This document shows positions 3,972 through 20,855 of a stretch of DNA of 20,855 nt, piece after piece; position 1 is the first letter of the stretch; each line of letters opens with the position of its first letter. The stretch is from Candidatus Bathyarchaeia archaeon (GTDB lineage: Archaea > Thermoproteota > Bathyarchaeia > Bathyarchaeales > Bathycorpusculaceae): positions 1 through 20,855 of the forward strand of contig JBEKGO010000039.1 in assembly GCA_050012755.1 (NCBI GenBank), written 5' to 3'. The notes under the pieces are model-generated. The model saw only the letters and a list, made by a program, of their open reading frames with translations, had not been told where the DNA came from and did not search any database. The position numbers and the translations under genes are program-made.

Positions 3972-4340
3972 TTGTCTAAACTTGTTTGGAATAAACCCGT
4001 CTTATGCATTTTTAAAGAGCGAGAACCCTTCGAAATAGATCCATTTGTAGTAGTTAAAGCCAAGAAGCTGGCTCTTACACCTCAAACTGGCTCTAAATGT
4101 TCTGGCAAAGTGGAGGATTTTTTCACTCTTATGGGCGACGCCGATTATCTTTCGACCTCTGAAGGTGCAACTGACCATTATGTTATGTGTTGGTTTGACG
4201 ATACAGAGCCAGATATGACTAAGGATTTGAGACGCCTACGAGGAGTTACTTTTACGGGGAAAGTCACTTTTTTCCTCAATGAAGGCGGTAAACGCACTTA
4301 TAACGCTGCTTTTAAGGCTGAGCATGCCAAACTGAAATAA
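3972..4340 (+). CDS. Hypothetical soluble protein, 122 aa
   Basis: TTG start with RBS and TATA box, globular beta-rich composition, T-tract after the stop; no family recognised. Confidence 0.75.
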   Translation: MSKLVWNKPVLCIFKEREPFEIDPFVVVKAKKLALTPQTGSKCSGKVEDFFTLMGDADYLSTSEGATDHYVMCWFDDTEPDMTKDLRRLRGVTFTGKVTFFLNEGGKRTYNAAFKAEHAKLK

Positions 4341-4908: not shown

Positions 4909-6459
4909 ATGACCGAAATAAAATCCGTTGTTTGTCCAATATGTGGCTGCTTATGTGATGACTTAGAAGTTACAGTGGAAAATAACGAAATTATAAAAAT
5001 GAAGAATGGCTGTGCCCAGTGTGAAGCCAAAATGGTTCACGGGTACAAAAGCGAAGAAAGAATTCTAAAACCGATGATAAGAAAAGACGGCAAGTTAGTT
5101 CCTGTCTCCATGAATGAAGCCGTCCACAAAGCAGCTCAAATTCTCACCGACGCAAAGTATCCGCTTCTATTCGGCTGGAGCAGCTCAACCAGCGAAGCGC
5201 AGCGAGTTGGCGTCGAACTAGCGGAAGAATTAGGCTCAGCATTGGACAACTGCTGCAGCGTTTGCCACGGACCATCAGTTATGGCTGAACAAGAAATCGG
5301 CATCCCCTCATGTACTCTTGGACAAATCAGACACCGTGCAGACCTCGTAATTTACTGGGCATGCGACCCATGGGCTTCACACCCAAGACATCTTGAAAGA
5401 TACACCAGTTTCACTGAAGGTCGCTTTGAAGGCAGCGAATGGAAAAATTACATGGAAAAACTGAAAGGCGCTGCAAGCCAGAAAAAAGTTGCCGCAGCTT
5501 CAAAGAGGATATTGGGTAGCTATAATCCTCCAATTCATCCACAAACATGCGCTGTAGGCGCGCCGCCTCAGGCAATCAACAAGAATGGGCGTAAACTAAT
5601 TGTTGTTGATGTCAGAAAAACCATAACTGCCGAGGCAGCTGATTATTTTATTCAGGTAGAACCAAACAAAGATTATGAAATACTAGACTCCATGAGATGT
5701 TTAGTGGCTGACCAAGAACTTGATGTTGACAAGGTTGGTGGTGTTCCAGTTGAATACCTTAAAGAAGTAACAGACGCAATGGTAAACTGCGATTTCGGTG
5801 TCATCTTCTTTGGTCTAGGCTTAACTCAAAGCGCAGGCAGATTCAGAAACGTCGAAATTGCAATCGCATTAACACGTGACCTTAACAGAAGAACCAAGTT
5901 TGTTATTTCGCCCATGCGAGGGCATTTCAACGTTACGGGCGCAAACATAGTTTTCGCTTGGCAAACAGGTTATCCATATGCACTTGATTTCTCACAAGGC
6001 TATCCACAATATAACCCTGGAGAATTCACAGCAATTGATTTGCTCAGACGCGGCGACAACGATGCAACCCTAGTTATTTCGTCAGATCCAGGTGCGCACT
6101 TTCCTAGGGTAGCAATGCAAAATATGATGAAGCACCCGATAATCACCATTAACCCAGACATGAACGCTATCTCAAGGCTTGGCGATGTAGTATTTCCAAC
6201 TCAGTGGTGCGGCATAGAATACGAGGGTACCGCTTACCGCATGGATCAGGTGCCAATAATGCTCCACAAAGTTGTTGAGCCACCAAAGGGCATTCTAAAC
6301 GACGAAGAACTATTAAAGAAAATACTAAAAGAGGTTCGAGCAATCAAAGCCCAAAATCCAGAAACCGAAACTAACGCCGAACTTAAAGCACGCAACAAAC
6401 TGGCACCTAAGATCGAAATTAAACAAAGAAAGAAAACAAAAAAAGCGGAGATTGCTTAA
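4909..6459 (+). CDS. fwdB: Formylmethanofuran dehydrogenase subunit B (Mo/W-bis-PGD catalytic subunit, Cys ligand)
   Basis: CPICGCLCDD [4Fe-4S] motif, SVCHGP metal-ligand motif (TGC at 5263-5265), HPRH, MRGHFNV, GTAYRMD. Confidence 0.96.
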   Translation: MTEIKSVVCPICGCLCDDLEVTVENNEIIKMKNGCAQCEAKMVHGYKSEERILKPMIRKDGKLVPVSMNEAVHKAAQILTDAKYPLLFGWSSSTSEAQRVGVELAEELGSALDNCCSVCHGPSVMAEQEIGIPSCTLGQIRHRADLVIYWACDPWASHPRHLERYTSFTEGRFEGSEWKNYMEKLKGAASQKKVAAASKRILGSYNPPIHPQTCAVGAPPQAINKNGRKLIVVDVRKTITAEAADYFIQVEPNKDYEILDSMRCLVADQELDVDKVGGVPVEYLKEVTDAMVNCDFGVIFFGLGLTQSAGRFRNVEIAIALTRDLNRRTKFVISPMRGHFNVTGANIVFAWQTGYPYALDFSQGYPQYNPGEFTAIDLLRRGDNDATLVISSDPGAHFPRVAMQNMMKHPIITINPDMNAISRLGDVVFPTQWCGIEYEGTAYRMDQVPIMLHKVVEPPKGILNDEELLKKILKEVRAIKAQNPETETNAELKARNKLAPKIEIKQRKKTKKAEIA

Positions 6460-8157
6460 ATGACCGAGTTACTAATAAAAAACGGCTTCGTCTTTGACCC
6501 TATTAACAAGATTAACGGGGAAAAAATGGATATAGCCATCAAAGGCGGCAAAATCGTTCACAAAGTCGGCAGCAAAGCCCAAGTAATTGACGCCTCAGGC
6601 TTGACTGTCATGCCGGGCGGCGTTGACATTCATACGCACATTGCAGGTGGGGAAGTTAACACTGGCAGAATAATTCGTCCTGATGACCATGTTAAAGATG
6701 TGGAACGCAAAACAGTCATGACTCGTGGCGGTACTGGTTACTCCATTCCTTCCACTTTCATTACTGGTTACCGTTATTCTCGTATGGGATATACGACCGT
6801 TATGAATCCATCAATGGCGCCACTGTCAGCTAAACATACCCATGAAGAATTAAATGACATACCCTTGCTTGACAAAGCCTCTTATCCACTTTTGGGCGAC
6901 TGGTGGTTTGTACTAGAAAACCTAGCTAAAGGTAACATTGAAGAATGCGCTAAACATGTCGCTTGGATGCTGGATATAACCAAGGGTTATGCCATAAAAA
7001 TCGTTAACCCGGGAGGCTTAGAATCTTGGGGTTTCGGACACAACGTCCACAGCATCGACGATCAAGTAGCCAACTTCTGCATCACCCCACGCGAAATAAT
7101 ATGCGGCTTAGCCAAAGTTAACGCCCTGCTCAACCTACCTCACTCTATACATCTTCACACTAACAACCTTGGATTACCCGGTAACTATGCTACAACACTT
7201 GATACTATGAAGGCGCTAGAAAGCGTGCCTTACAACGGCAAACCCGTTGGACACATTACTCACTTGCAGTTCTCGAGCTTCGCAGGCGACAGCTGGGCAC
7301 ACTTTAATTCAGCATCAGAAGAAATTTCAAATTACATTAACGCACACAACCACATGACCTTTGACATGGGGCAAGTCATATTTACAGACACAACAACGAT
7401 GACGGCTGACGGACCATTCGAGTTTTCACTCTACGAGTTAGGTGGCCACAATAAATGGGTTAACAGTGACGTTGAAACAGAAACTAGCGGCGGAATAATA
7501 CCCTTCCACTACAAGAAAAACAGCCCAGTAAACGCGTTGCAATGGTCCATTGGATTGGAATTGGCTTTGCTCATTAAGGACCCCTGGAAAATGTTCATGA
7601 CAACCGACCACCCCAACGGCGGACCCTTCTTTGCTTACCCACGCGTTCTCGCTTGGCTATACAGCAAGAAAGCACGCGAAGCAACACTCAAACATTGCCA
7701 CAAGAAAGCGCAGAAAAAGAGCTTGCTCCCGACAATCAACCGTGAAATGTCACTCTACGACATAGCCATTATGACCCGCGCAGGACAAGCAAAAGCTTTG
7801 GGTCTTCAAAACAAAGGCCAACTTGGCGTTGGCGCAGACGCAGACGTCGCAATATACAACATTAACCCTGAAAAACTCGACATAGCCCAAAAATTCAAGA
7901 CCGCACGCAAAGCCTTCAAACATGCATCCTACACCATCAAAGGCGGCAAAATCGTTGTGAAAGATGGCGAAGTAGTAAACAACACCACGCCTGGCAGAAC
8001 CATGTGGCTTGATGTCCAAACCAAAAACCCCTGCATAATTGACGAGGAAATGAGACGCAAATTCAAACAATACTGGACAATCGAATATGACAATTACCCA
8101 GTGTTCGACCATTACCTCAGGGTTCCAGAAAAATTAACTGTGAAGGCAAGTGTCTGA
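6460..8157 (+). CDS. fwdA: Formylmethanofuran dehydrogenase subunit A (binuclear amidohydrolase)
   Basis: DIHTHIAG, KIVNPGG, HLHTNNLG, HITHLQF and TDHPNGGP motifs. Confidence 0.97.
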   Translation: MTELLIKNGFVFDPINKINGEKMDIAIKGGKIVHKVGSKAQVIDASGLTVMPGGVDIHTHIAGGEVNTGRIIRPDDHVKDVERKTVMTRGGTGYSIPSTFITGYRYSRMGYTTVMNPSMAPLSAKHTHEELNDIPLLDKASYPLLGDWWFVLENLAKGNIEECAKHVAWMLDITKGYAIKIVNPGGLESWGFGHNVHSIDDQVANFCITPREIICGLAKVNALLNLPHSIHLHTNNLGLPGNYATTLDTMKALESVPYNGKPVGHITHLQFSSFAGDSWAHFNSASEEISNYINAHNHMTFDMGQVIFTDTTTMTADGPFEFSLYELGGHNKWVNSDVETETSGGIIPFHYKKNSPVNALQWSIGLELALLIKDPWKMFMTTDHPNGGPFFAYPRVLAWLYSKKAREATLKHCHKKAQKKSLLPTINREMSLYDIAIMTRAGQAKALGLQNKGQLGVGADADVAIYNINPEKLDIAQKFKTARKAFKHASYTIKGGKIVVKDGEVVNNTTPGRTMWLDVQTKNPCIIDEEMRRKFKQYWTIEYDNYPVFDHYLRVPEKLTVKASV

Positions 8158-8971
8158 AATGATCATTTTAATCCCCAAAAGAAAATTTGAGGTACCTGTC
8201 CAGGCAGCATGTATCAGCCCCGATGTATTCAAAGGCAAAGACACAACTGAAATAGCAAACCTGCCCGTTACCGAAGGAAACCGCAACCTAAAACTCGGCG
8301 ACCTCTTCGAAATCCACGAAGACAATCTTGAAACACCTTACATCACAATAAACGGAGACGCAGGCAAAGTCAAACGAATCGGTCAAGGCATGAAAACAGG
8401 CGAAATCCTCATCAACGGTGACGCAGGCATGCATACGGGCGAAAAAATGGCTGACGGCAAAATCACAATAAATGGTAATATAGGAGGATGGTCAGGTAAC
8501 GACATGAAAGGCGGCTTAATTGAAGTCCATGGAGACGCAGGCGACTATTTAGCTACCCCATACCGTGGGACAAGCACAGGCATGAAAGGCGGCTTAATAA
8601 TTGTTGACGGCAAAGTCGGAAGTGACTCCGGATGCTACTTGCACGGTGGAATACTTAAAATCAAAGGCGGTGCAGGAAGATTCCTCGGTTACCACATGAG
8701 TGATGGTGCAATTCTTGTTGACAAAGAAGTTGACACTCGAACAGGCGCATGTATGACCGGCGGCAAAATCGTAATAACAGGCACAATCCCAGAAGTAATG
8801 CCCACGTTCACCATAGACAGCGTAAAACCCAAAGTCAAAGTCGACGACACCCAAACTGTCGCAGGACCATTCTATGTATTTCTAGGCGACCTCTCAGAGC
8901 ACGGCACAGGCAAACTCTTCGTCTCAAAAGTCAACAACCCGCAGCTTAAGTCATACGAAAAATACCTATAG
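8150..8971 (+). CDS. fwdC: Formylmethanofuran dehydrogenase subunit C
   Basis: Repeated GxxMxGGxIxxxG beta-helix units, YRG..GMKGG, FLGDL; GTG start overlaps the fwdA stop. Confidence 0.96.
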   Translation: MSEMIILIPKRKFEVPVQAACISPDVFKGKDTTEIANLPVTEGNRNLKLGDLFEIHEDNLETPYITINGDAGKVKRIGQGMKTGEILINGDAGMHTGEKMADGKITINGNIGGWSGNDMKGGLIEVHGDAGDYLATPYRGTSTGMKGGLIIVDGKVGSDSGCYLHGGILKIKGGAGRFLGYHMSDGAILVDKEVDTRTGACMTGGKIVITGTIPEVMPTFTIDSVKPKVKVDDTQTVAGPFYVFLGDLSEHGTGKLFVSKVNNPQLKSYEKYL

Positions 8972-9074: not shown

Positions 9075-9188
9075 AACTTGCAGAATTATGATTGCTACAT
9101 TATTCGAAGTTTGCCGACAATTGTATGAACAGCCGAATACCTTATCAAGTTGGCTGAGTTCAAAAACAACCACATAAGAGGACAACGT

Positions 9189-9974
9189 ATGCGTCAGGTT
9201 GACATGGTAAGGCTTGACTTATCTACGGGAAAAGCGGAGAAAACTAAGGATTGTGTTGCTGAAGAGGTTCCTCTTCAAATTTCGCTCAATGATGTTTATA
9301 CATTTGTGATTTGGTGTTCTCCTTCACAGTTTAAGGAGCTTGCTGTTGGTTATTTGCTTGCGGAGGAAATTTTGAGGTCGGTTGACGAAATCGAATCCTT
9401 AAGCTCAGACGAACAAGAACACAAATGTCAACTTAAACTGAAGGCAAGCGTAGATTTGGATGATCGCATGAAGCATTCGCGCCGAAGCACCCGCATAATC
9501 CCCCTCATCAAAGCCAGTACCTCACCATACCAACATGACGAGCGCATACCCATCGTAAAATCCACTCTGAAAATTAGAGCCCAAATTATCCTAGACGCCG
9601 TGAACCAAATCAACAGCCTCGCTAAGGGTTTTAAGGAGACTGGGGGGCTACATGACTCCGCCATCGTTAAAGCCGACGGCACGATTGTGGCTTTTTCGGA
9701 GGATGTGGGCAGACACAACACGGTTGACAAGGTTATTGGGCAGGCGTCGCTGAAAAATGTGGATTTTAGCCAGTGTTTCATGATTATTACTGGGCGTGTG
9801 CCGGGAGACATGATTTACAAGGCGGCGAAAGTTGGTTTGCCCATCGTGGCTTCAGTGGCGGCTGTTTTGAATTCAGGCATTTCTTCGGCTGAAAAAGCCA
9901 ACATTGCGCTGGTGGGGTTTGTACGTGGAAAACGCATGAATGTTTACACGGGGCTTGAGCGGATCATCCTGTAG
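9189..9974 (+). CDS. fdhD: FdhD/NarQ-family Moco sulfurtransferase/chaperone lacking the loop Cys
   Basis: VAEEVPL, ELAVGYL, TGGLH, EDVGRHNTVDK, TGR and LVGFVR motifs. ATG 9189 with upstream GAGG is preferred over TTG 9150. Confidence 0.93.
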   Translation: MRQVDMVRLDLSTGKAEKTKDCVAEEVPLQISLNDVYTFVIWCSPSQFKELAVGYLLAEEILRSVDEIESLSSDEQEHKCQLKLKASVDLDDRMKHSRRSTRIIPLIKASTSPYQHDERIPIVKSTLKIRAQIILDAVNQINSLAKGFKETGGLHDSAIVKADGTIVAFSEDVGRHNTVDKVIGQASLKNVDFSQCFMIITGRVPGDMIYKAAKVGLPIVASVAAVLNSGISSAEKANIALVGFVRGKRMNVYTGLERIIL

Positions 9975-9983
9975 GTGCCCTGA

Positions 9984-11252
9984 ATGAATCGACCTGATAT
10001 TAGACGGCTGCCAAAACGCTCGGACCCCCTAAAAGCACAAGCCAAGCTTCTGGATGGTGTAAAGTCAAAGTCACTTTTAACCGAAAAAATCGGGTTAGCT
10101 CAAGCCGTAGGCAGAGTCCTAGCCAAAGATGCTTACTCAAACATCAATGTACCAGCTTATGATAAAACATTCATAGACGGATACGCAATCAACCCTAAAA
10201 CCACTGCTAGTGCATCAGCCTCAAAACCCGCCGCCTTCAAAGTTGTTGGTAAACTGTTTCCAGCCGACTACCCTACCAACGCCCAAGTGGCAAGCGGCGA
10301 AGCGATCTACGTTGCGTGTGGCGCACCAATCCCCAAAGGGGCTGCCTCAACCGTTAAAGTGGAGGAAACCCGATTAAGCGGCGACAAAATCGAAGTCGTC
10401 CGTGAAATCAAACAGGGCGAGGGCATCATCCCGCTTGGAGACGACGTAAAACAGGACACACTGATGCTCAAGCGTGGGCAGGTTCTGCGACCTCAAGACA
10501 TCGGCCTACTCGCATCCATCAACATGAGAGAAGTAGAAGTTTTCAAAAAGCCAACCCTCGCCATCTTATCGGGTGGAGACGAACTCATCAAGCAATGCAG
10601 AAAAGACTCAACAAAAATCGCTAACAACTACGCTTTAGTCGTTGCGGGGTTAGCGTCTGAATTAGGAGCAGCAGCCGTGCTGAAGGGGATAATGCCTGAT
10701 GCATTGGACCACGTGAAAGAGAAAATCGGAGAAGCCTTAGCCGAGGCGGATATTGTAGTTACCATCGGGGGCACTTCGGTGGGTATAAAGGATTTTATTC
10801 CAGACGCCATAAACCAGCTTGGGGAACCGGGAGTTGTTGTGCAGGGCATTTCGCTTCGACCTGGGGCTGTTTCAGGCTTCGGCATCGTAAACAGCAAACC
10901 CATTGTGATGTTGCCTGGGCACATTGGCTCATGTATTGCAGGCTTGTACTTTTTTGCAGCTCCCCTGATCCGTTTATACTGCGGTTTAGATGGCGACGGC
11001 TTGCAACCCCGTCTAACTGCAGAGCTCTCAGAAGCCGTGGATTCTGGTCCGCAATTCAGGTTTCTGCTCCTTCACCTAAGACGTGCTGAAGGCAAACTTT
11101 TTGCTGAGCAGGTGGAAGGCGGCTCAAGCGCCCTAACAACCATAGTCAAATCAAACGGGTATGCAATCATCCCACCGCACAGAAACTTGGCAAAAGGCAC
11201 CAATGTGGCAGTTTATTTATTCGGAAACTTGGAACTGGCGCAAATTGCCTAA
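9984..11252 (+). CDS. moeA: Molybdopterin molybdotransferase MoeA (divergent)
   Basis: GRVLA, DGYA, GAPIP, GDEL, GGTSVG.KD, LPG and NGY motifs. Confidence 0.92.
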   Translation: MNRPDIRRLPKRSDPLKAQAKLLDGVKSKSLLTEKIGLAQAVGRVLAKDAYSNINVPAYDKTFIDGYAINPKTTASASASKPAAFKVVGKLFPADYPTNAQVASGEAIYVACGAPIPKGAASTVKVEETRLSGDKIEVVREIKQGEGIIPLGDDVKQDTLMLKRGQVLRPQDIGLLASINMREVEVFKKPTLAILSGGDELIKQCRKDSTKIANNYALVVAGLASELGAAAVLKGIMPDALDHVKEKIGEALAEADIVVTIGGTSVGIKDFIPDAINQLGEPGVVVQGISLRPGAVSGFGIVNSKPIVMLPGHIGSCIAGLYFFAAPLIRLYCGLDGDGLQPRLTAELSEAVDSGPQFRFLLLHLRRAEGKLFAEQVEGGSSALTTIVKSNGYAIIPPHRNLAKGTNVAVYLFGNLELAQIA

Positions 11253-12343
11253 GCTTGCGGCGCTTTCGATGGGTACCTGTGGGCATGGCTGTGTTTTCCC
11301 ATGACCCATGATTCACACCATGCCTTGTCAGCCAGTGCCCGTTCTGCCAGTAGCCAACAGCGGTTCTCCTCGTAAATTTCAGCCTCAACTCGATAGCTGT
11401 TTGCGGCTTTTAGAAAAGAATCCTTGCCTTCAAAATCCCGCTCAACAACCGCTTTAGGGTCAAGCTCCTGCTGACTTAACTTCAATAGTGTTTCGCCTTG
11501 GTTTTCCCAGCTTAATGCTGCCCAAAAAAACGCGTTCGAAAATTCAAAATTACAGGCACAATCAGCAAAAGTACTCTGTGCTTCCGAAATTCTGTCTTCT
11601 TGTAGCATTTTTGCGCCTGCTCGAAGACGCTGTAAATCAGAAACCGAGAAAATACCCAAGTTTACACTGAGGTTTTCCGTAACTGCCCTTTCAAATCGCC
11701 GCAATTGCAGCCGATTGAGGTCCTCTCTAAAATTTATGTTTATGAAACTTTTAAGTTCAGGGTCAAGCGTTTTGATGTGGTTAATCGGGGAAATAAAAAG
11801 GTTTTTTGATGCGCCTCTGGGGATGTCATCTGAGCGTGGCCGCTTCAACTTGCAAAGGGTCTCTGCGATCTCTAAGCCGCTTTCCCTTTTGAGAACCATT
11901 AGGAGGGTTTCTAATCTGCCGTTTGGCCACATTGGAACCGCAACATCAACATCCCCAGCCTCCCTGAACAGGTATTCAGCAACACTTGGCTTTAGAAAAG
12001 GCATGTCACAGGGCAATGTAAGGCAAAAGTCTGCTTTTGACGCCTTCAGCCCAGACATGATTGCCACGTTAGGACCACTTATGCCGCTGATTTCTTCGTC
12101 AACTACTATTTTGATGTTTGACAGGGCATGCTCTTTCAAAGTTCGGGCGTATTTTTCCTTCCTTTCCTCGTTATTTACTGATACTGCAATTTCGTCCACA
12201 ACGCCCTGGACGGTTTCGATAGCGCTTATCAACAGAGGTTTTCCTGAAAGCTCAGCGAGTGCCTTATCCTGCCAAACTTTATCTGTTGTCTGGAATCTGC
12301 GGGCTCTTCCTCCAGCCAAAATCAATGCAGCCCGTTTAGTCAT
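11249..12343 (-). CDS. mobA: Molybdenum cofactor guanylyltransferase MobA with ~155-aa C-terminal helical extension
   Basis: ILAGGRARRF, DKAL, GP, PCDMP, NIN..EDL; adjacent to mobB. Confidence 0.88.
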   Translation of the reverse strand: MTKRAALILAGGRARRFQTTDKVWQDKALAELSGKPLLISAIETVQGVVDEIAVSVNNEERKEKYARTLKEHALSNIKIVVDEEISGISGPNVAIMSGLKASKADFCLTLPCDMPFLKPSVAEYLFREAGDVDVAVPMWPNGRLETLLMVLKRESGLEIAETLCKLKRPRSDDIPRGASKNLFISPINHIKTLDPELKSFININFREDLNRLQLRRFERAVTENLSVNLGIFSVSDLQRLRAGAKMLQEDRISEAQSTFADCACNFEFSNAFFWAALSWENQGETLLKLSQQELDPKAVVERDFEGKDSFLKAANSYRVEAEIYEENRCWLLAERALADKAWCESWVMGKHSHAHRYPSKAPQA

Positions 12344-12356
12344 CGCTGTTTCCTCA

Positions 12357-12908
12357 TTAAGCTGTTTTGTTTTGTGTTAACTGTTTTTTGACGAGTTCCA
12401 AAAGTTTTTGCCCATCCTCAGGCACCTTAATGATTGGTATGTTGTTGTAGTCTGTGCTGTTTGAGTTTTCGGCTACGATTCCTGCAATCGCCAAAATCGG
12501 CTGGACCGTACCTTTCAAAGTCTGTTTGAGACCATTTTCACTTACTGCTGTAATAATTTTCGGAACATCGGTTCTTTTAGCGATTAGACTGTGGAAGCCT
12601 TCAATGAAAACAATGTCCAAATCCTCGTCCTTAAGCAGAGCAGTTATCTGGTCTACGTTGTTTAGCGTCATCTCAGTTTTTCTAATTATATCAATTTCTT
12701 CTGGCGAAATGGCCACAATTACTTTTGCGCCTGCTTTAGCGTATCTCCAGGTGTTTGTGCCTTCCTTATCCATCGTGAAACCTTTGTGGTGGACATGTTT
12801 TATTGAGCCGATTTTGTAACCTTGGGCTGAAAGCTGAGAAACTAAATATTCTAAGGTAACTGTTTTTCCTGAACCGCTAACACCTACGGCGGCAACAACT
12901 AAAACCAT
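12357..12908 (-). CDS. mobB: Molybdopterin-guanine dinucleotide biosynthesis protein MobB
   Basis: Walker A GVSGSGKT, IKHVHH, D..G.NT, AGA, IEGF. Confidence 0.93.
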   Translation of the reverse strand: MVLVVAAVGVSGSGKTVTLEYLVSQLSAQGYKIGSIKHVHHKGFTMDKEGTNTWRYAKAGAKVIVAISPEEIDIIRKTEMTLNNVDQITALLKDEDLDIVFIEGFHSLIAKRTDVPKIITAVSENGLKQTLKGTVQPILAIAGIVAENSNSTDYNNIPIIKVPEDGQKLLELVKKQLTQNKTA

Positions 12909-12989
12909 ATGAGTTCACACTCCGCTTTGACATCAATTGTTTGGCTTTTATAAATTACTCCCGAAATTTCACTCAAAAACATCATTTTG

Positions 12990-14099
12990 TTAATCGCCAC
13001 CCTCAGCAAAAACATTCAATGCATCAGCATTAAAACACGCATATACTTTATCACCGACGTTGACGCCTAACTCTCGAATTAGGCTTAAAGCAAGCCTTGC
13101 CTTCAACAAAAACCCAACATCCACGGTAACCTGCGCGGTTGACCTCATCTGAACCATCTCAGTTAGGGTCCCTTCAATATAATTGCCTACCCCACCAATG
13201 AAACTCGTTTTGGGCGATTTACTAGTTGAAAGCATAATGTCTTCGGGCTTAATCGTTATTGTAACGGCTTTCCCAGCAAGATTAAGAGTTGAGCAAGCAA
13301 GTAATCTTACGCCATTTACCTCCACTTCTAAAACTCCTGAACTGGCCTTAACAGCTGTGCCCTTGAACGCGTTAACCCCCAAGAACTGTGCCACATGCTT
13401 CGAACTGGGCTTATCAAAAATCTCGGTTCTGTTGCCAATTTGTTCTATGTGTCCATTACCCATCACAGCGATTCTATCCGACATTATGAACGCTTCGCTC
13501 AGATTATGAGTAACATACAACACCGTAATTTTAAGCGTCTGCAAATAATTCTTTAGTTCTAGCCGAAAAGATTCCCGAAGCTGGGGGTCAACAGCAGAAA
13601 CAGGTTCATCTAAAAGCAGTACTTGCGGTTCAGTGGCTAAAGACCTAGCTAGTGCTGTGCGTTGCTTTTGCCCGCCGCTAAGCTGGCTTGGATAAAACCT
13701 TGCGAATTCCCGAAGCCCCACAAAGTCAAGCAGCTCGGTGGTTCTTTTCTTAACTTCTTGTTTAGATAAACGCTGAGCCTTAAGTCCATATGCAATATTG
13801 TCTTCGATTCGCATGTGAGGAAAAAGGGAAACTGTTTGGAAGACATAACCGACTTTTCGTTCTGAAGGTTTAAAATGAACTTTTTTTGTGCCTGTTTTTC
13901 CGCTGACTAGAACATCGTCAATGTAGATGTTGCCATTGTCCTGTTGTGTTAAGCCTGAAAGTATGTTTAGCAGAGTTGTTTTTCCACAGCCGTTTGGACC
14001 AAGCAATGATAGGATTTCTTGGTTTTTGACCTCAAGACTAAGGTTTTGTATCACCTTTTTTTCTGCAAAGGACTTGGTGACTTCATTAATCTTAATCAT
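12990..14099 (-). CDS. modC: Molybdate/tungstate ABC transporter ATPase with C-terminal TOBE domain
   Basis: GPNGCGKT, LSGGQ, LLLDEP, H-loop VTH, TOBE-like C-terminus; operon with modAB. Confidence 0.9.
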   Translation of the reverse strand: MIKINEVTKSFAEKKVIQNLSLEVKNQEILSLLGPNGCGKTTLLNILSGLTQQDNGNIYIDDVLVSGKTGTKKVHFKPSERKVGYVFQTVSLFPHMRIEDNIAYGLKAQRLSKQEVKKRTTELLDFVGLREFARFYPSQLSGGQKQRTALARSLATEPQVLLLDEPVSAVDPQLRESFRLELKNYLQTLKITVLYVTHNLSEAFIMSDRIAVMGNGHIEQIGNRTEIFDKPSSKHVAQFLGVNAFKGTAVKASSGVLEVEVNGVRLLACSTLNLAGKAVTITIKPEDIMLSTSKSPKTSFIGGVGNYIEGTLTEMVQMRSTAQVTVDVGFLLKARLALSLIRELGVNVGDKVYACFNADALNVFAEGGD

Positions 14100-14914
14100 T
14101 TTTTGGCTCCGTACCTTTTTTGCTCAATAAGTTTCACGATGATAAGGACAGAAAATGCAATAACTATTAAGATAATAGATAACATTACCCCGGCTAATGG
14201 ATCTGAATACAGCAACAAGTATATTGCCAGAGGCATTGTCTGTGTTATGCCCGCCAAACTTCCAGCGAACATTAAAGTTGCGCCAAATTCTCCTAAAGCT
14301 CTTGCCCAAGTCATCATTGCACCGGAGATTATTGCGCGGACCGATAAAGGCAAAGTTACTGTAACAAATACCCTGAGACGTGAACCAGTTAACATTTTGG
14401 CGCTGTTAATAACATCCCTATCCATATTTTCAAACCCGGTTTTCGCGGACCGCAGAAGGAACGGAGACGCCACGAAAGTTTCTGCAATTATAACTGCGAT
14501 TGTACTGCCTGGAATAATTAATCCTAACCTGTTCAATATTGGGCCTAACAGCCCTTTTGGTGCGAAAGCGTAAAGCAATGCTACACCCGCTACAGCAGGC
14601 GGTAACACTATAGGGAGATCTATCAGGGTATCTATGATTGTTTTTCCATGGAAATTTCTAGTTGCCATGAAATAAGCTGTTGGCACCGCTAAGACCAACG
14701 CAATCAACGTTGCTACGCCAGATGTAAATAAACTAAGTTTTATTGCTTCCAATATTACAGTGTTATGCAGTTGGGCGTTAACTTGACTCGGTTCAATTCT
14801 CAAGAAAACTGCCACGATTGGCAAGAGCACAAACAGAAAATATGTCAACACTATTATGGCGAGAATTACAATTACAATTTTGTTCGACAACGAATTAGCG
14901 AAAGTCCGCTTCAA
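14096..14914 (-). CDS. modB: Molybdate ABC transporter permease
   Basis: DLPIVLPPAVAG.ALL, FVASPF, WARALGEFGAT.MFAG, TMPLAIY. Confidence 0.94.
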   Translation of the reverse strand: MKRTFANSLSNKIVIVILAIIVLTYFLFVLLPIVAVFLRIEPSQVNAQLHNTVILEAIKLSLFTSGVATLIALVLAVPTAYFMATRNFHGKTIIDTLIDLPIVLPPAVAGVALLYAFAPKGLLGPILNRLGLIIPGSTIAVIIAETFVASPFLLRSAKTGFENMDRDVINSAKMLTGSRLRVFVTVTLPLSVRAIISGAMMTWARALGEFGATLMFAGSLAGITQTMPLAIYLLLYSDPLAGVMLSIILIVIAFSVLIIVKLIEQKRYGAKK

Positions 14915-14971
14915 TATTTTTGCACCGATTAATTGATGAAAAAAGGGTGAGGAAGTGCTTAATATGCAGTT

Positions 14972-15991
14972 TTACGCTGCGCCGAACCCGAATTCAGCAA
15001 GTAGCTTTTGTCCGTTTTGTGTCGACCAGTAATCCATAAATTTCTGCGCTAATGCTGCTTGAGTTGTTTCATTTGGGACGACAATGCCATAATTGCCCAC
15101 TGTGTTTACCGCGGAGGGTATTGCAATGAATTGTACTTGAGATCCTGTCATGTTGGCATAGGCCCAATCAGAGTAAAATACTATGCCAGCGTCTGCTGTG
15201 CCCATGTTGAGGGAAACGGCTCCAACTACTTGTTCATCGGTTCCTAGCTTGTTGACGACGTTAGCTTGGAAATTCGTATAATAGTTCACGTATGCGCCGC
15301 TGCTATCGTATTGTGGGCTGCTTGAGTTACCCCATGTTGAAGTAATTTTTGTTAAGGTTTGGTTTGTGTATGAGCCAACGGGTACTGAAGGGTCTGCTAT
15401 TACTATTTTTACTCCTGGCTTAGTCAAGTCAGCCAGAGTTTGAATGTTTTTCGGGTTTCCCTGTGCCACAATTACGCAGAGGCTATTGTTAGTGAACTTG
15501 ACGGCGTTGTTTAATGTTAGTCCTGTGCTGTTTAGTTGGTTAGTCCATTTGGTGTCCGCGGACATGAAAACGTCGCATGGTGAGCCTGAGGTGATTTGTG
15601 TGTATAGAGCGCTTGATGAACCTGGATTGACGATTATGTTGCAGTTGTTTGCGGTGTCGAATGCTTGGGTCATGTTGGCGACGATATTAGTTAGGCTCGA
15701 TGCTATGAAGACTCGCAGATCCACAGGTTGTGGGGTTGGGGTTGGTGAGGGTGATAGCGAAGGTGTCGGTGATGCTGATTGCGTAGGCGTGGGAGAGGCT
15801 GTGGACATTGGAGTTGCTGATGGCGTTGGAGTTATAGTTGGTGTGGGCGAGGCGGTCGTTGTTGGAGTTGGGGTTGGAGTTGGCGAGGGATTGCTGTTTG
15901 ATGAGAATGCTCCACTATATGCTAAGTAACCTAATGCTGAAGCAAATATTATTATGACAACCAATATTACGGCTAAGTATTTGTTGTTCAT
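14972..15991 (-). CDS. modA: Molybdate ABC transporter substrate-binding protein (ModA type), membrane-anchored through a Pro/Thr linker
   Basis: ASSL, GSS..L..QI, DVFMSA, NSL, VPVG.Y and DAGIVFYSD motifs; N-terminal hydrophobic helix. Confidence 0.92.
15725..15892 (-). repeat. Low-complexity Pro/Thr/Ser linker (PTPT..) in ModA
   Basis: [28 protein letters not shown]...SPTPTPQP. Confidence 0.9.
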
Positions 15992-16001
15992 ACCTACTCA
16001 A

Positions 16002-16029
16002 CGCGATGTTATCATTTAGTCATATCGAT
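16002..16029 (-). promoter_or_regulatory. Candidate ModE box between the modA TATA box and start codon
   Basis: Minus strand ATCGATATGAC-TAAATG-ATAACATCGCG matches the length and CG...CG spacing of the ModE consensus ATCGnTATATA-N6-TATATAnCGAT; TATA (TTTATATG) at 16040-16047. Confidence 0.55.
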
Positions 16030-16132
16030 AAAATGTCAACATATAAACATTTCTCACAGAAAAATTGACAACAAAAGAATTAAAAACACAACAAGAAACA
16101 AGATATCTGCTGGCCCAAAATAATGATTAAGC

Positions 16133-16462
16133 TTAAGGCATTTTTGCCAATACGACTTTTAACTCAGCTTGAGCATTCCGATAACGTGTAACCAAATTTT
16201 TTCCAAAATCTGTAACCTCAGAAGACCCCCCTCCTTTGGCGCCCCCACGAACTCGCGTAACCAGTAGTTGACCTAACCTGGTCTCTGCCAAAGTAATCCT
16301 GTGCAAGGCATAACGGTAGGACATTTCAAGATTCTTTGCTGCCTCCAGCATAGAGTGACATTTATCGATTTCCTCTAAAAGTTCAGCTAAACCATCGCCG
16401 AAGACGGCTTCTTTTTTCTCATTAATCATCCAAAGCTTAATTGCGTAAGTTAGAGCGCACAC
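16133..16462 (-). CDS. modE: ModE-family winged-helix regulator (N-terminal domain only)
   Basis: VFGDG..ELLE.I....S...AAK.L.MSYR.A...I...E..LG..LV...RGG..GG.S.VT..G pattern; directly upstream of modABC. Confidence 0.88.
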   Translation of the reverse strand: MCALTYAIKLWMINEKKEAVFGDGLAELLEEIDKCHSMLEAAKNLEMSYRYALHRITLAETRLGQLLVTRVRGGAKGGGSSEVTDFGKNLVTRYRNAQAELKVVLAKMP

Positions 16463-16519
16463 TCGGTAGCCACCCTCTTTTACTTAGGCTCAAGAAGAAT
16501 TAAGGTTAGCGCTAAAGAC

Positions 16520-17539
16520 TCATACTTCCATGACTTTCGCTTTTTTTAGAACATTGACGTTTCCATTCCCTTTAGTTACATAGCCAACTTCAAAATGCCT
16601 GACTTTCCGCCTATCCAACTCACCCAACAAGTCATCCGTATCCTGCTTAGCTATAGCAATAAGCATTCCGCCTGCGGTCTCCTTCGCTTCACCCTGCAGC
16701 AAGGGATAGCCGAAAATTTCCGTCAGCACCGGCGTACCTCGAATCACCGGCAACTGGTCAATCACAATGTCAACTTTGCCTAGCATAGCCATATTGGCGG
16801 CATGACCTTTCAATCCAAAGCCAGTCACGTCTGTAGCTGCGTGCACTGGAACTTTCTGCATAGCTTCAGCGACGGGTTTGTTTGATGTAATCATTACATT
16901 GATGGCTTCATCAACTGCGACGTCAATTATGTTCTCTTGTACGTCTCTGAGGAGTTCTTTGCCTTCTTCTTCCTTCCGCAATCGGTAAGCTGCCATTGCA
17001 GGCGCAATCCCAAGTGGCTTAGTCAAAAACAAGCGGTCACCAGCCTTTGCCCCACGAGTGTAAACGATTTTTTTGGGGTTGCCTATGCCTGTTGCTGCGC
17101 CGCCAATAATTGGCCAAGGGTTCCGAATAGTGTGGCCACCAACCACAGGTGCACCCATTTCACGGCAAAAATCACCAAAACCTTTCAACATCCCAACAGC
17201 CAATTCGTCAGGCATATTCTCGGGATAAGCCATAATCGACAAAACACTAACAATGTTTGTGACGGCTAAAGCGTAAATGTCGCTGGTCACGTTGCTTCCC
17301 GCGATTCTGCCTTGAATTTCAGGTTCATCAACCATGGGCGTGAAGAAGTCAAGCGTGTTTAGAACTGCAAGGTTATCAGCAATTCTTACGACGCTTGAGT
17401 TTTCCCATGGACCAGCTAAGACGTCCTCACCAAACCCCTCTGATAAACCAGCCTTGTCTAGCAATCCGCCTAGCTGGTACTGGGGAAGCTTGCAACTGCA
17501 ACCGTGAATTGGAACAACCTTGGTTAACCTATAACCCAA
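16520..17539 (-). CDS. selD: Selenophosphate synthetase SelD or SelD-like protein (Cys-type)
   Basis: GCSCK, DFFTP, N..SD, GGHT, LTKPLG, TDVTGFGL.GH, T.GG; GGAGG RBS before TTG. Confidence 0.92.
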   Translation of the reverse strand: MGYRLTKVVPIHGCSCKLPQYQLGGLLDKAGLSEGFGEDVLAGPWENSSVVRIADNLAVLNTLDFFTPMVDEPEIQGRIAGSNVTSDIYALAVTNIVSVLSIMAYPENMPDELAVGMLKGFGDFCREMGAPVVGGHTIRNPWPIIGGAATGIGNPKKIVYTRGAKAGDRLFLTKPLGIAPAMAAYRLRKEEEGKELLRDVQENIIDVAVDEAINVMITSNKPVAEAMQKVPVHAATDVTGFGLKGHAANMAMLGKVDIVIDQLPVIRGTPVLTEIFGYPLLQGEAKETAGGMLIAIAKQDTDDLLGELDRRKVRHFEVGYVTKGNGNVNVLKKAKVMEV

Positions 17540-17567
17540 CTTTTTTCCTCCCGCCTTTTCATTTACA

Positions 17568-17792
17568 CTAATGCTTCTTTATCGTAATTCGAAATTCATT
17601 CTCTGATTTAGATGTTTCAACTACATGATGCCCATTATTTTTAACCCAACGCTGAACATTATCAAACTCTAACTCTCCTTCGCCGATGACTTCCAGCAGT
17701 TGCCCAGAAGCCATGCTTTCCAACTTACGCTTTGTAAAGGCAACTGGCATAGGACACATTTTTCCCTTAACGTCTAACTTTTCAATTTTCAA
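17568..17792 (-). CDS. tusA: TusA/SirA-family sulfur carrier
   Basis: LDVKGKMCPMP (CPxP) motif, 74 aa. Confidence 0.93.
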   Translation of the reverse strand: MKIEKLDVKGKMCPMPVAFTKRKLESMASGQLLEVIGEGELEFDNVQRWVKNNGHHVVETSKSENEFRITIKKH

Positions 17793-17801
17793 AATATCCG
17801 C

Positions 17802-18152
17802 CTAAAACACTATAACTTTATCACTGTTAGCTGTCCACTCAACAAGTTCATGAACTGTCGCAATCTTGACTCCATCAAGCAAGTCAGATTGGGTCAAGCC
17901 ACGCGCCTCTGCACAGACAATGCAAGCTTTGACTTCAGTGCCGCCTTTAATTAGATCCTCTAACATTTGACCATAATTGGTCAAGCCTTGAGCTGGTTTT
18001 TGACCTTTTTTAGCTAGGTAAACGCCATTTTCGAACAGCCAAATTCTCACTTTGTGTCCTTCTAAGTCGCATGTCCATGCAAATCTTAGCGCTGAAAGTG
18101 CACGTTCTTTTGCGTATGGTGCTTCATATATTATTAGTGTGTAAGTTACCAA
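17802..18152 (-). CDS. DsrE/DsrF-family sulfur relay protein
   Basis: APY..ER...ALRFA, LFENGVY, ACIVCAEARG motifs; GAGGT RBS. Confidence 0.9.
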   Translation of the reverse strand: MVTYTLIIYEAPYAKERALSALRFAWTCDLEGHKVRIWLFENGVYLAKKGQKPAQGLTNYGQMLEDLIKGGTEVKACIVCAEARGLTQSDLLDGVKIATVHELVEWTANSDKVIVF

Positions 18153-18210
18153 GCAATCAACCTCAATTTATCTGAATATAACTGTTAAAAAACTAATATA
18201 ATGCTTTATG

Positions 18211-18537
18211 TTATTCTTCTTCCTCGATTTTCACCCAGATTTTTCCTGACACAATTTTCCACTCATGACTTACGAGTTTAATGGCCGGTTCCTCTTCGTA
18301 CTCACCTGTTTTGAGGTCAAAGCGCCAATCATGGCAAGGGCAAATAATCACGTTGCCTTCAAGAGTTCCGCCTGAAAACGCGCAGCCCATATGAGGGCAT
18401 CGGTTATCAATGACGTAAATTTGTCCTGACTGTTTAATGAGTAGAATAGGTAAACCTTGAATTCGTACAAGTTTCATCGTGCCTTCTAGTAGAGCTTTTT
18501 CTTCTAAAACAGCGACAAAATTATCCGATTCAGCCAT
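18211..18537 (-). CDS. Small Rieske [2Fe-2S] ferredoxin
   Basis: CPH...CPCH (CxH/CxxH) ligand set, FDLKTG. Confidence 0.93.
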   Translation of the reverse strand: MAESDNFVAVLEEKALLEGTMKLVRIQGLPILLIKQSGQIYVIDNRCPHMGCAFSGGTLEGNVIICPCHDWRFDLKTGEYEEEPAIKLVSHEWKIVSGKIWVKIEEEE

Positions 18538-18669
18538 AAATCTGTCTCCTCACAAGATTATTCGTATTCATCAAATAAGTTTTGCCTTTCCTTCATTTAA
18601 CAATCGAGCCGATGATTCCCAGTTTTAATATTTAAATGCTTAATTCCTAGTGGTTCTAGTGTATTTTTC

Positions 18670-19509
18670 ATGTTCCAAGTGAAGCCGATGCAGGTTAAAG
18701 ATTTTGCGTTTGCAACTGAACTAGCCAACACAATGAACTGGAACATGGCTGTCGAAGACTTCGCTTTTATGACTTCACTTGAACCCGAAGGTTGCTTTGT
18801 TGCTTTTGAGGATTCGGACCGTGTTGGCATAGCCACTTGCATAAGTTTTAATACGGTTGGTTGGTTTGGCAACCTAATTGTTGAAGAAAAATACCGAAGA
18901 AAAGGCGCAGGCAGACTTCTAGTGAAGCACGCAGTAAACTACTTGCAAAGTAAAGGCGCCAAAACTATTGGGCTCTATGCTTACCCTAACCTTGGAAGCT
19001 TTTACGGAAGCTTAGGTTTCGAAAAAGAGATGGATTTTTCTGTTCTGCATGCAGAAGACCTTGGCTCCGTAGCGGGTAAAACCATGCCTAAAATAGAAAC
19101 AAAGCAGATCAGTACAATAGAGGAGTTTGATAGTCGATGCTTTGGCGGCAACAGAAAAAAACTGCTTGAATCCATCCTTCTTGAAAAAGGCAATTTGAGC
19201 TATTACTTTTCTAGGAAAAATGAGGTTGTGGGGTATGTGGCGGCTACGGTTTACGAAACAATGGCTTGGGTTGGACCCTTAATATGCGAAGTGGGCAATG
19301 TTGACGGTGCTGTTGAGCTGCTTAAAGCGGTTCTTGCAAAATTAACTGGCAAAAGCGTTTACCTGGCACTTCCAAAAAATGAATTTGCTCTTTTAGACAT
19401 GCTTTTCAATATAGGTTTTACGGAAGATTTTTCTTTAGCAAGGATGTTTTTAGGTGAAGCAACCGCAAAAAATTGCATATATTTGGCTGAATCTTTGGAA
19501 AGAGGTTAA
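18670..19509 (+). CDS. GNAT-family N-acetyltransferase (two-domain, YitH-like)
   Basis: Motif A V...YRRKGAG..L, FY..LGF; second domain with WVGPL. Confidence 0.88.
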   Translation: MFQVKPMQVKDFAFATELANTMNWNMAVEDFAFMTSLEPEGCFVAFEDSDRVGIATCISFNTVGWFGNLIVEEKYRRKGAGRLLVKHAVNYLQSKGAKTIGLYAYPNLGSFYGSLGFEKEMDFSVLHAEDLGSVAGKTMPKIETKQISTIEEFDSRCFGGNRKKLLESILLEKGNLSYYFSRKNEVVGYVAATVYETMAWVGPLICEVGNVDGAVELLKAVLAKLTGKSVYLALPKNEFALLDMLFNIGFTEDFSLARMFLGEATAKNCIYLAESLERG

Positions 19510-19513
19510 AATT

Positions 19514-20855
19514 ATGAGTGAGGATCACTGTAAATTTTTGCTTGAAGATTTTTTGAAGACTTCTTTTTCAACAGTGAAGGTTCTAGTGGAAGGTGCCGCG
19601 GCTTCAAAGGACCAGAATAGCAATCGTAAAGTTACGTTGTTCCGTTATGTTAACGGCAAAAAAGTTTCTTTTCCCTTCTCCGATGAACGCTTCTATCTGC
19701 GCGGCTCAGTTGAGTATACGAATCCACAGTTGACGGTTGAGGAGGTTCAAGGTATCGTCGGGACCCGCCTGCTTGAAACCTGCGCCAACTACTTTTACGA
19801 GCATAGTTTACATCCGCCAGATGACGGCGACGTTTCTGCACTTGCTGAGTTACTTAAAAAACCCACGCGAGGCTATATCGTGCCTTTCTTGCTTAACACA
19901 GATGATGTGGAGGCAGACCGTTACTCGATGAATCCACTCAAAAAATCAATCGTGGACAGCGGCCAAAGCGCTTTTCCAGTAGCCAATGTAAAAACGGACC
20001 AATTGAAAATCGATGAAGCATACCTCAAAAAATACGATGGCTCATTAATCTCACAAAAAGAAGCCGCACTCATAACCGAAATTCTGCAAACCAGCAACGG
20101 CTCTTACCTGGATTTTGTGGATTCAATCAAATATTCGCAGTTAAAGGAACTATCAGCGTTTTTTGGAATGGACCTTTCTCTTTACACGTTGCGTATGCCG
20201 CTTTCAACGCTGCAGACGGAGAACAGAGATGGCTTGCTACATTACATAATTCGAGAGAGCAACCGAGATTACGCCTCAATTGAGGAAGCATATACTTGCA
20301 TGGGCCGCAGCATGAAAAACCGCACAACCCTTCTCACAGTGCCGCATTCCACGAAAGGTTTCGGCTCTAAACGTGCAGCCCGAGGAAAATTGCATTTTGA
20401 AAACGGAAAGTTGCTTGACGCCACTGTCAAATACAAAACTACTCCTCTCTACCCTAATGCCATGGACCCCGAAGACATCGCAGTCGCTGTTTGCGATGAC
20501 AACTTCATTGTTCCTGGCGAAAAACTTGCCGATTACAGTTTCGCTGAGACGCCTTCTTCACCACAGTTCTTCCTATACTCAATCGGTTCTCCTGAGGACG
20601 CGACGGTTTGGCATGGCGTCGGCGCCTTCGCGGCAACACAACTACTACACAGCTACAGGTCCGGCCGCATAGCTTGCCGAGAAGGAAAACTAATCAAGAA
20701 TTTAACCGAAAAGTTCAACATCAAAGTGGATGTACCCCTACAATTTAACCTTGCACCCGAGGGCGTGTGGAGCCACCCAATTCACCGCAACATCGACGCC
20801 AGCATAGGCAGCGTAGATGACCTTCCAGATTTGGCGCATCGAGGAATGAAACTTG
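19514..20855 (+). CDS. Large hypothetical protein (>447 aa), 3'-truncated by the window edge; absent from the ORF track
   Basis: Manual translation from ATG 19514 (MSEDHCKFLLEDFLKTSF...HPIHRNIDASIGSVDDLPDLAHRGMKL) shows no stop to the window end; 4 bp after the GNAT stop, GAGGT RBS. Confidence 0.9.
   Translation, partial: MSEDHCKFLLEDFLKTSFSTVKVLVEGAAASKDQNSNRKVTLFRYVNGKKVSFPFSDERFYLRGSVEYTNPQLTVEEVQGIVGTRLLETCANYFYEHSLHPPDDGDVSALAELLKKPTRGYIVPFLLNTDDVEADRYSMNPLKKSIVDSGQSAFPVANVKTDQLKIDEAYLKKYDGSLISQKEAALITEILQTSNGSYLDFVDSIKYSQLKELSAFFGMDLSLYTLRMPLSTLQTENRDGLLHYIIRESNRDYASIEEAYTCMGRSMKNRTTLLTVPHSTKGFGSKRAARGKLHFENGKLLDATVKYKTTPLYPNAMDPEDIAVAVCDDNFIVPGEKLADYSFAETPSSPQFFLYSIGSPEDATVWHGVGAFAATQLLHSYRSGRIACREGKLIKNLTEKFNIKVDVPLQFNLAPEGVWSHPIHRNIDASIGSVDDLPDLAHRGMKL

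Follow-up and report, generated by a model that had tools for sequence, protein, structure and literature searches.

A dsrE-tusA-selD trio in Candidatus Bathyarchaeia as the probable core of a reduced selenium island

The stretch of DNA analysed here (the window, 20,855 bp) is the entire contig C39 (JBEKGO010000039.1) of a Candidatus Bathyarchaeia archaeon, whose 2.41-Mb genome is assembled in 65 contigs with a marker completeness of 100% and 0.97% contamination. It carries a compact trio of genes, dsrE, tusA and selD, which are predicted to encode two small cysteine carriers and a selenophosphate synthetase. The reading favoured here, to which a probability of roughly 0.7 is given, is that the trio represents a selenium island reduced to its core, still in use although selenocysteine (Sec) decoding has been lost, and that its position beside molybdenum/tungsten (Mo/W) genes is inherited. 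It draws on the family membership of the three proteins, the invariance of their cysteines, the co-inheritance of their genes, the constraint acting on them and their ancestral embedding in Sec biosynthesis.

The trio and the selenium traits of the genome

An earlier note on this DNA had described a compact dsrE-tusA-selD unit with gaps of 9 and 28 bp; both junctions were exact by coordinates, and all three families were confirmed by scans. SelD scored above both curated models (NF010705, 337.3 bits against a cut-off of 291; TIGR00476, 233.7 against 125), while its match to NF038049, the crenarchaeal SelD-like sulfur family, reached only 39.7 bits against 250. Over its full length the protein aligned with human SPS1 (3FD5/9HJT; E 5e-49), C14 falling on the Sec/Cys position and also on the TGA codon of relatives' selD genes. 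Residues C14, C16, K17, D64, D71, N83, D87 and D237 were invariant in 37 orthologues; we take these to be the Sec/Cys and Lys of the N-terminal glycine-rich loop and the Asp and Asn residues of the ATP site. At the level of sequence the predicted protein is a true Cys-type selenophosphate synthetase.

Invariant positions were likewise found in 37 orthologues of each carrier, namely C13, P14 and P16 of TusA and C77 and C80 of DsrE. The best NCBIfam matches of TusA were the YedF selenium-metabolism models (TIGR03527/PRK11018), with 42.6 bits against a cut-off of 79 and 40.5 against 110, both below cut-off. A protein homology search with DsrE returned close relatives only, under the names 'tRNA 2-thiouridine synthesizing protein D' and 'DsrE family protein'.

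The rest of the genome was searched for the systems that are known to depend on SelD. PSTK and SepSecS were absent from the profile searches, no tRNA-Sec was found above the Rfam gathering score with the covariance model or by aragorn, and tblastn with relatives' SepSecS and PSTK/SelB returned generic GTPases only. SelU (TIGR03167) had no match in the genome, although it was detected in the control, M. jannaschii, and YqeB (TIGR03309), YqeC (TIGR03172) and YedE were not found by profile searches; tblastn with relatives' proteins likewise found no YedE, DUF3343 or second TusA. The best match to TIGR04348, presumably the SenB selenosugar synthase family, reached 40.5 bits against a cut-off of 300 among generic glycosyltransferases (SenA was not searched for). 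Neither LysR_Se nor an island-type reductase was found in the window or by tblastn in the genome, where the search reached only a reductase paralogue (36% identical) on contig C2. The earlier note had reported no Sec, SelU or YqeB/C genes inside the window, and none were found there or elsewhere in the genome. No known SelD-dependent trait is therefore present among those searched for, and SelD is what the literature calls an orphan, as the earlier note had suspected. Where selD is unlinked from dsrE-tusA in relatives (L028, L031 and L033), its neighbours encode Toprim proteins, kinases, dehydrogenases and RNase HII, none of which is a candidate acceptor.

The compact arrangement is real and not an assembly artefact, since peat and wetland metagenome contigs from three other runs span the Rieske-dsrE-tusA-selD junctions with 0-1 differences (Table 1). 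The sequence is carried by 24 DNA sequencing runs, with no RNA run among those listed.

Relatives, distribution and selection

Related loci were found with the DsrE protein; 70 of these together with the window, less 13 without selD, gave 58 selD-bearing loci. They come from peat, soil and termite guts, and several of the records are titled 'Candidatus Bathycorpusculum'. The commonest gene order in the genus was Rieske, LysR_Se, dsrE, tusA, double-cubane reductase, selD, where LysR_Se, a divergent LysR regulator, scored 254-262 bits (NF040786, cut-off 250) and the reductase about 500 bits (NF040772, cut-off 350); downstream of selD there were often genes for a PhoU/MazE-type regulator and NfnAB-like proteins, followed by modE. 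The island reductase was uninterrupted at 32 of the 58 loci, fragmented at 7 and absent from 19; fragmented genes often occurred in assemblies with fragmented neighbours and may be read errors. LysR_Se was missing from 7 of the 58 loci, and the window lacks both genes.

A complete selenium island was found in the sister genus (L125:9159-18319 and L126:8687-16508), placed between modE and fwd. Its selD has a TGA codon exactly at the position of Cys14 of the window ('VHG*SCK') and is followed by genes for an activase (TIGR00241), the reductase, TusA, DsrE and a carbohydrate-kinase-like protein; the second part of the island holds DUF3343 (PF11823, 'Se_S_carrier'), a YedF-like second TusA, YedE in two halves (TIGR04112), LysR_Se and SepSecS, beyond which lie Rieske, orf122, fwdD, fwdB (Cys) and fwdA. 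In G310 the order was PSTK/SelB, LysR_Se, dsrE, tusA, selD, SepSecS, and in G131, G192 and G039 selD adjoins PSTK/SelB and SepSecS. In the termite-gut lineage the neighbours of dsrE-tusA were unrelated (M48 peptidase, response regulator, TrkH and NadA).

All counts for the genus were made on a single draw of 81 genomes. SelD and DsrE were each found in 56 genomes and both in 55, that is, in 55 of the 57 genomes with either, including genomes which have the genes on different contigs. The exceptions were G095, where SelD lies at a contig start and DsrE was not found, and G017 (88% complete), where DsrE is present and SelD was not found. In several genomes dsrE-tusA and selD lay on separate contigs among unrelated neighbours, and both were kept. 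This co-occurrence supports dsrE-tusA-selD as a functional unit, which is how the earlier note had treated it. SepSecS was found in 6 of the 81 genomes, with tRNA-Sec above the gathering score beside it in the same six, while neither SelU nor YqeB was found in any. Uninterrupted full-length SelD was present in 47 genomes, four with Sec markers and 43 without, the latter including the single-contig genomes G013 and G067. The genomes without SelD fall mostly into a single deep clade (FdhD 50-57% identical). Of 301 genomes sampled across the class, only 19 had SelD. DsrE orthologues of at least 52% identity were found only in SelD-bearing genomes (G017 excepted), and DsrE homologues at 35-45% identity were common in SelD-less Bathyarchaeia families.

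The trio is under strong purifying selection. Overall pairwise ratios of nonsynonymous to synonymous substitution rates (dN/dS) were 0.02-0.10 for selD, 0.02-0.07 for dsrE and 0.03-0.21 for tusA (dS 0.3 to >2). Comparison of the window with relatives lacking SepSecS gave 0.056-0.071 for selD, 0.03-0.065 for dsrE and 0.03-0.07 for tusA, and between two sister loci without LysR_Se and reductase, in whose genomes SepSecS was not found, selD had a dN/dS of 0.074 (dS 1.1). Constraint of this strength implies that selenophosphate must still serve some acceptor.

In bacteria, YedF is a fusion of TusA-like and DsrE-like parts which is tied to SelD, and such carriers are thought to handle selenium around SelD (Lin et al. 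2015, PMC5322559, in its available text). By analogy, the TusA and DsrE of the window may act like the two halves of a YedF-type protein; their cysteines would carry reduced selenium and hand it over to the Cys14/Cys16/Lys17 loop of SelD, which would make selenophosphate from ATP. The earlier note had placed the carriers after SelD, on the way to a cofactor, a direction contrary to what the available text of that paper says of bacterial YedF. In the ancestor and in the sister genus, selenophosphate would have fed SepSecS for selenocysteine, and the ancestral island would also have held LysR_Se, the double-cubane reductase with its activase, DUF3343, a second TusA and YedE. The lineage of the window would then have lost Sec decoding, LysR_Se, the island reductase and YedE, and kept the trio under constraint.

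SelD serves as the signature of selenium utilisation, and for each accepted use an acceptor system is known. In the present case a widespread, uncultured genus of peat, soil and termite guts keeps a constrained SelD and two cysteine carriers in 43 of 81 sampled species, and these 43 have no Sec markers. The genus forms a natural series, from the full island with Sec through the island without Sec and the bare trio to pseudogenes and nothing, which makes other uses of selenophosphate approachable by phylogenetic profiling together with biochemistry on three small proteins. It is possible, although we would hesitate to call it probable, that dozens of species in the genus run a SelD-dependent use of selenium without Sec, selenouridine, YqeB/C or SenB, for which only SelD, TusA and a CxxC DsrE are needed. 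If so, this would be a further selenium-utilisation trait, whose acceptor could be a Mo/W-pterin enzyme such as formylmethanofuran dehydrogenase (Fwd), an iron-sulfur enzyme or RNA.

Alternative explanations and known systems

SelD would be an ordinary supplier of Sec decoding if the Sec genes had escaped assembly or binning. In Sec users of the genus, the Sec locus (PSTK/SelB, SepSecS and tRNA-Sec) stands beside an hdrA-mvhD fusion gene with an in-frame TGA ('FMCNW*GYAG'), a gene which has two forms in the genus: the TGA form in the six Sec users and G009, and an uninterrupted Cys form of about 818 amino acids in most other genomes. The copy in the window's genome (G000, C51:8723-10213; relatives at L134-L136 and L140) is cut by the contig end, beside the site expected for a Sec locus, in an assembly of 65 contigs; moreover, 6 of the 81 genomes are Sec users, these can also have a Cys-type SelD, and G009, whose SelD is 89% identical to that of the window, has the TGA-type gene. 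However, the C51 gene is the Cys-type allele of Sec-less relatives, being 92-96% identical to the gene of G018, G046, G012 and G084 and 68% identical to the TGA type; it is uninterrupted across the first break position of the TGA-type gene, and no Sec genes were found at the hdrA-mvhD locus of those four genomes. The last 52 bases of C51 had no match among the metagenome contigs. In addition, the genome is complete by its markers, and searches with hidden Markov models, a covariance model, aragorn and tblastn yielded no PSTK, SepSecS or tRNA-Sec. Genes on the LysR_Se side of the cassette, the island reductase among them, are kept by five of the six Sec users, whereas the window's genome has lost both this reductase and LysR_Se. 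The two single-contig genomes have SelD without Sec markers; a hidden Sec system is given a small chance. Similarly small is the chance given to the model of the earlier note, in which SelD would produce seleno- or thiophosphate and selenium or sulfur would be delivered by TusA/DsrE, together with FdhD, to the Mo/W-bis-pyranopterin guanine dinucleotide cofactor of Fwd, a Sec-independent route into an enzyme of the DMSO-reductase family. TusA is known to affect molybdenum cofactor synthesis in E. coli, and FdhD to sulfurate bis-molybdopterin guanine dinucleotide. In its favour, 57 bp separate selD from the modE-like gene downstream, selD is co-directional with modABC-mobBA, a mod, mob, fdhD or fwd gene occurs within 6 kb on either side of selD at 35 of the 58 loci, the sister-genus island also adjoins modE and fwd, fdhD-mobA adjoin SepSecS in G039, and no known SelD acceptor system was found in the genome. 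The conserved linkage nevertheless held only in that part of the sample: within the same distance it was missing at the other 23 loci, the termite-gut lineage has lost it altogether (dsrE-tusA and selD being themselves unlinked there), with the trio unaffected, and around the cassette of single-contig G013 no Mo gene was seen for about 10 kb. All 47 high-quality genomes of the genus have FdhD, those without SelD among them, so Fwd maturation does not need SelD. Sec-using members of the genus share the modE/mod/fwd synteny, and there the SelD acceptor is SepSecS; since a full island with SepSecS and a Sec-type SelD occupies this position in the sister genus, the neighbourhood is taken to be inherited gene order. 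No YqeB/YqeC-like selenium-cofactor maturases were found, and FwdB was Cys-type where found intact in Sec users (Cys in three, split in a fourth and not found in G062; the sixth, G069, was not searched). The sister-genus FwdB is also Cys-type, and the idea that FwdB was an ancestral selenoprotein which explains the synteny was rejected on account of Cys in the three Sec users and the sister genus. The Mo/W adjacency is best read as inherited gene order and gives no evidence of a relay into the Mo/W cofactor; delivery to the Fwd cofactor is unsupported, which corrects the tempting reading that closeness to Mo/W genes implies a selenium-containing Fwd.

It is also improbable that SelD feeds selenium to a double-cubane [8Fe-9S]-type reductase, a formal possibility raised by Haft in the form of a selenium-bridged cluster, of which only the paralogue on C2 would be left here. 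The two are associated: the island-type reductase stands between tusA and selD at 32 of the 58 loci, all 32 genus genomes with an above-cut-off match have SelD or (G017) DsrE, and 955 of 970 strong NF040772 proteins were in SelD-bearing assemblies according to the available text of Haft and Gwadz (bioRxiv 10.1101/2022.07.06.499078). The own genome retains the paralogue (C2:43633-46442, 337 bits against the cut-off of 350), with two activase genes following it. However, on a maximum-likelihood SelD tree the reductase-less and reductase-bearing loci were interleaved, with at least 15 state changes over 46 scored rows, a rough count as the tree is weakly resolved; the reductase was thus lost repeatedly while selD stayed intact and constrained, and SelD is not kept only for that reductase. 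The C2-type paralogue was found in nearly all genus genomes, including SelD-less G001, G003 and G010, and so cannot depend on SelD. A functionless relic, heading for loss after Sec decoding was abandoned, is more doubtful still. The trait is indeed eroding in the genus, with clear selD pseudogenes in G011 (14 stops) and in a second copy in G022, remnants only in G005, one whole clade without the cassette, and further broken copies in G015, G078 and G087 which are possibly read errors; the window's genome is itself already without LysR_Se, reductase and YedE. Set against this are the low dN/dS values of all three genes, which extend to pairs sharing the stripped form, the invariance of every catalytic and carrier cysteine, and the uninterrupted SelD kept in the 43 genomes without Sec markers. 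Least credible is a module that handles sulfur, with SelD acting on sulfide and TusA/DsrE forming a persulfide relay, for example for thiolation or for molybdenum cofactor sulfur. It is chiefly for sulfur relays (TusA-DsrEFH and TusA-TusBCD) that the two carrier families, TusA and DsrE, are known, and the more distant DsrE homologues occur in many SelD-less Bathyarchaeia. A SelD-like family has also been proposed for sulfur metabolism in Crenarchaeota (PMC4210487, available text). The window's protein is, however, SelD proper by its model scores, orthologues in relatives have Sec at position 14 and lie in operons with SepSecS and PSTK/SelB, and the DsrE subfamily of at least 52% identity tracks SelD.

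Several points weigh against the trio being a selenium-island core which remains in use. For this real orphan module no acceptor of selenophosphate was found among the systems searched for, and the case for its continued use comes from purifying selection only. The 65 contigs, and the end of C51 inside a gene that adjoins the Sec locus of Sec-using relatives, leave some chance of a missed Sec locus, and G009, despite its TGA-type hdrA-mvhD, had no Sec genes in a 56%-complete assembly; it probably does use Sec, its machinery having been missed by the assembly. As the SelD-less genomes are mainly one clade, the co-occurrence in 55 of 57 genomes reflects few independent events. Selenium genes lie near Mo/W genes in two genera, as well as in G039, a member of another family where fdhD-mobA adjoin SepSecS, and this recurring proximity could be more than chance. 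The similarity of DsrE to the C-terminal part of the YedF model was not significant (E 0.07, 13 bits); with TusA below the YedF cut-offs, the YedF parallel is one of domain family and context, not of membership, and the direction of transfer, from carriers to SelD, is one that we infer.

The selenium neighbourhoods of bacteria contain LysR_Se, YedE, DUF3343 and a 2-hydroxyglutaryl-CoA dehydratase-like gene with its activase (Lin et al. 2015, PMC5322559; this and the comparisons with it below refer to the available text). The sister genus resembles them in having YedE (split), a YedF-like TusA, DUF3343, LysR_Se, reductase and activase, and the window in retaining TusA and DsrE parts with SelD. 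Unlike them, the window is archaeal (the paper reports two-domain YedF as absent in archaea), its two carriers are encoded separately, dsrE before tusA, its DsrE has no significant similarity to the YedF C-terminal domain, and all other island genes and the Sec machinery are missing. The trio shares with orphan SelD organisms (PMC2276186, PMC2432076 and PMC5322559, in their available parts) the presence of SelD without Sec or selenouridine systems. The orphans of 2008 were explained by YqeB/YqeC and selenium-dependent molybdenum hydroxylases (Haft and Self, PMC2276186; Zhang et al., PMC2432076; available parts); in contrast, none of the 81 sampled genomes yielded YqeB, and the window's genome yielded no YqeC. 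Among archaea, Lin et al. list a single orphan, whereas here 43 sampled species of one genus retain an uninterrupted SelD in the absence of Sec markers. As in the link between NF040772 and SelD (bioRxiv 10.1101/2022.07.06.499078, available text), the relatives' reductase gene lies between tusA and selD and is confined to cassette genomes; the window differs in having lost the gene while SelD is constrained, and the remaining paralogue is also present in SelD-less genomes. A Bathyarchaeota Sec system with a PSTK-SelB fusion (PMC9499178, available text) is matched by G039, G131, G192, G068 and G310, which have the fusion and SepSecS beside selD, but none of its genes was found in the window's genome.

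With the TusA-DsrEFH and TusA-TusBCD relays, the window proteins share folds and conserved cysteines, and FdhD adjoins the Fwd genes. They differ in that DsrE is single, has a CxxC motif and is without DsrF/H, and in that it tracks SelD rather than genes for sulfur oxidation or tRNA thiolation.

The Bathyarchaeota Sec system with its PSTK-SelB fusion was already known (PMC9499178), as was orphan SelD, a category with few members (PMC5322559), in the available text of both. No paper was found on selenium in the genus or on an archaeal dsrE-tusA-selD unit, in a search which did not extend to the supplementary SelD lists of PMC5322559, and these may bear on novelty. What is new here is an archaeal, split and minimal SelD-carrier module, kept without a known acceptor system in many species.

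Locus layout and further features

The open reading frame map bore out the arrangement given in the earlier note, with the trio ahead of modE-modABC-mobBA and facing fwdDBAC-fdhD-moeA (Table 1). Most of its gene names were also confirmed by family; the exceptions were 'modE', which has the helix-turn-helix (HTH) part only, and FwdD, ModC and MobA, which fell below their cut-offs. Family scans assigned modA-modB-modC to molybdate/tungstate ABC uptake and mobB-mobA to guanine dinucleotide addition, and the identity of Fwd was given by subunits A, B and C above equivalog cut-offs together with subunit D. The modE-like gene, 57 bp downstream of selD, comes after selD in many relatives, and the converging moeA and mobA overlap by 4 bp. 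Both modABC-mobBA and fwdDBAC-fdhD-moeA are treated as context of the selenium module. FwdB carries Cys in 'SVCHGPS', and TGA read-through gave no plausible lengthening of any window gene, in agreement with the earlier note that there is no in-frame Sec codon. A Rieske gene stands beside the cassette at most of the relatives' loci, and in the sister genus it adjoins orf122-fwdD.

Table 1. Genes of the window and metagenome contigs bridging the trio (positions in the window)
Feature	Position	Strand	Evidence
Rieske [2Fe-2S] protein, small, soluble	18211-18537	-	PF00355, 71.3 bits
dsrE, 116-aa DsrE-family protein, C77-x-x-C80	17802-18152	-	PF02635, 86.2 bits; TusD model 43.8 against cut-off 89.25
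tusA, 74-aa TusA/SirA-type carrier, 'MCPMP' cysteine C13	17568-17792	-	PF01206, 72.8 bits
selD, Cys-type selenophosphate synthetase (predicted), N-terminal 'HGCSCK' (C14, C16, K17)	16520-17539	-	NF010705, 337.3 bits against 291
modE-like, 109 aa, HTH-only, no Mop domain	16133-16462	-	TIGR00637, 56.6 bits against cut-off 98.5
modA	14972-15991	-	107 bits against cut-off 62.5
modB	14096-14914	-	200 bits against cut-off 183
modC	12990-14099	-	under equivalog cut-off
mobB	12357-12908	-	90 bits against cut-off 76
mobA	11249-12343	-	under equivalog cut-off
moeA, Mo/W insertase	9984-11252	+	three Pfam domains
fdhD, sulfurtransferase	9150-9974	+	TIGR00129, 197 bits against cut-off 141
fwdC	8150-8971	+	241.7 bits against cut-off 130.65
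fwdA	6460-8157	+	793.6 bits against cut-off 392.75
fwdB	4909-6459	+	543.5 bits against cut-off 327.8
fwdD	4501-4902	+	110.4 bits against 175 (tungsten-type model); Molydop_binding domain present
Bridging contig X2 record 8	17306-18900		
Bridging contigs X3 records 11 and 12	17306-17988 and 17988-18900		
Bridging contig X5 record 24	17460-17625		

MobA is 364 amino acids long; its NTP-transferase domain ends at about residue 213, and the C-terminal stretch of about 150 residues had no family match. FwdB matched its model in two stretches, with an insert at about residues 160-225 and a lysine-rich C-terminal tail. TATA-like boxes and Shine-Dalgarno-like motifs were noticed upstream of Rieske, dsrE and modA on visual inspection only, and are left out of account here. 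The window also encodes a response regulator (400-1680, +) with receiver and TackOD1 (thaumarchaeal output domain 1) domains, the latter in keeping with the assignment to Bathyarchaeia.

Some conserved genes at these loci had no family match. The product of orf122 (3972-4340, +) had no Pfam or NCBIfam match, and in both genera the gene immediately precedes fwdD (60-65% identical). In G157, which belongs to another Bathyarchaeia family, a homologue (49% identical; L132:11623-11982) is found some 0.9 kb away from a Cys-type selD. That region (L132:9733-14158) holds the Cys-type selD, a TPMT/TehB-like methyltransferase, the orf122 homologue, a DUF255 thioredoxin-like protein and an integrase, and may be a different, perhaps mobile, selenium context. 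Two large genes without a Pfam match, orf467 (19454-20854, +) and orf539 (L024:1831-3450), are conserved flanks of the cassette in relatives. Three archaeal cassette contigs (L058, L067 and L086) are filed under Acidoferrum, Limnocylindrales and Methanocella, which are probably binning or labelling errors.

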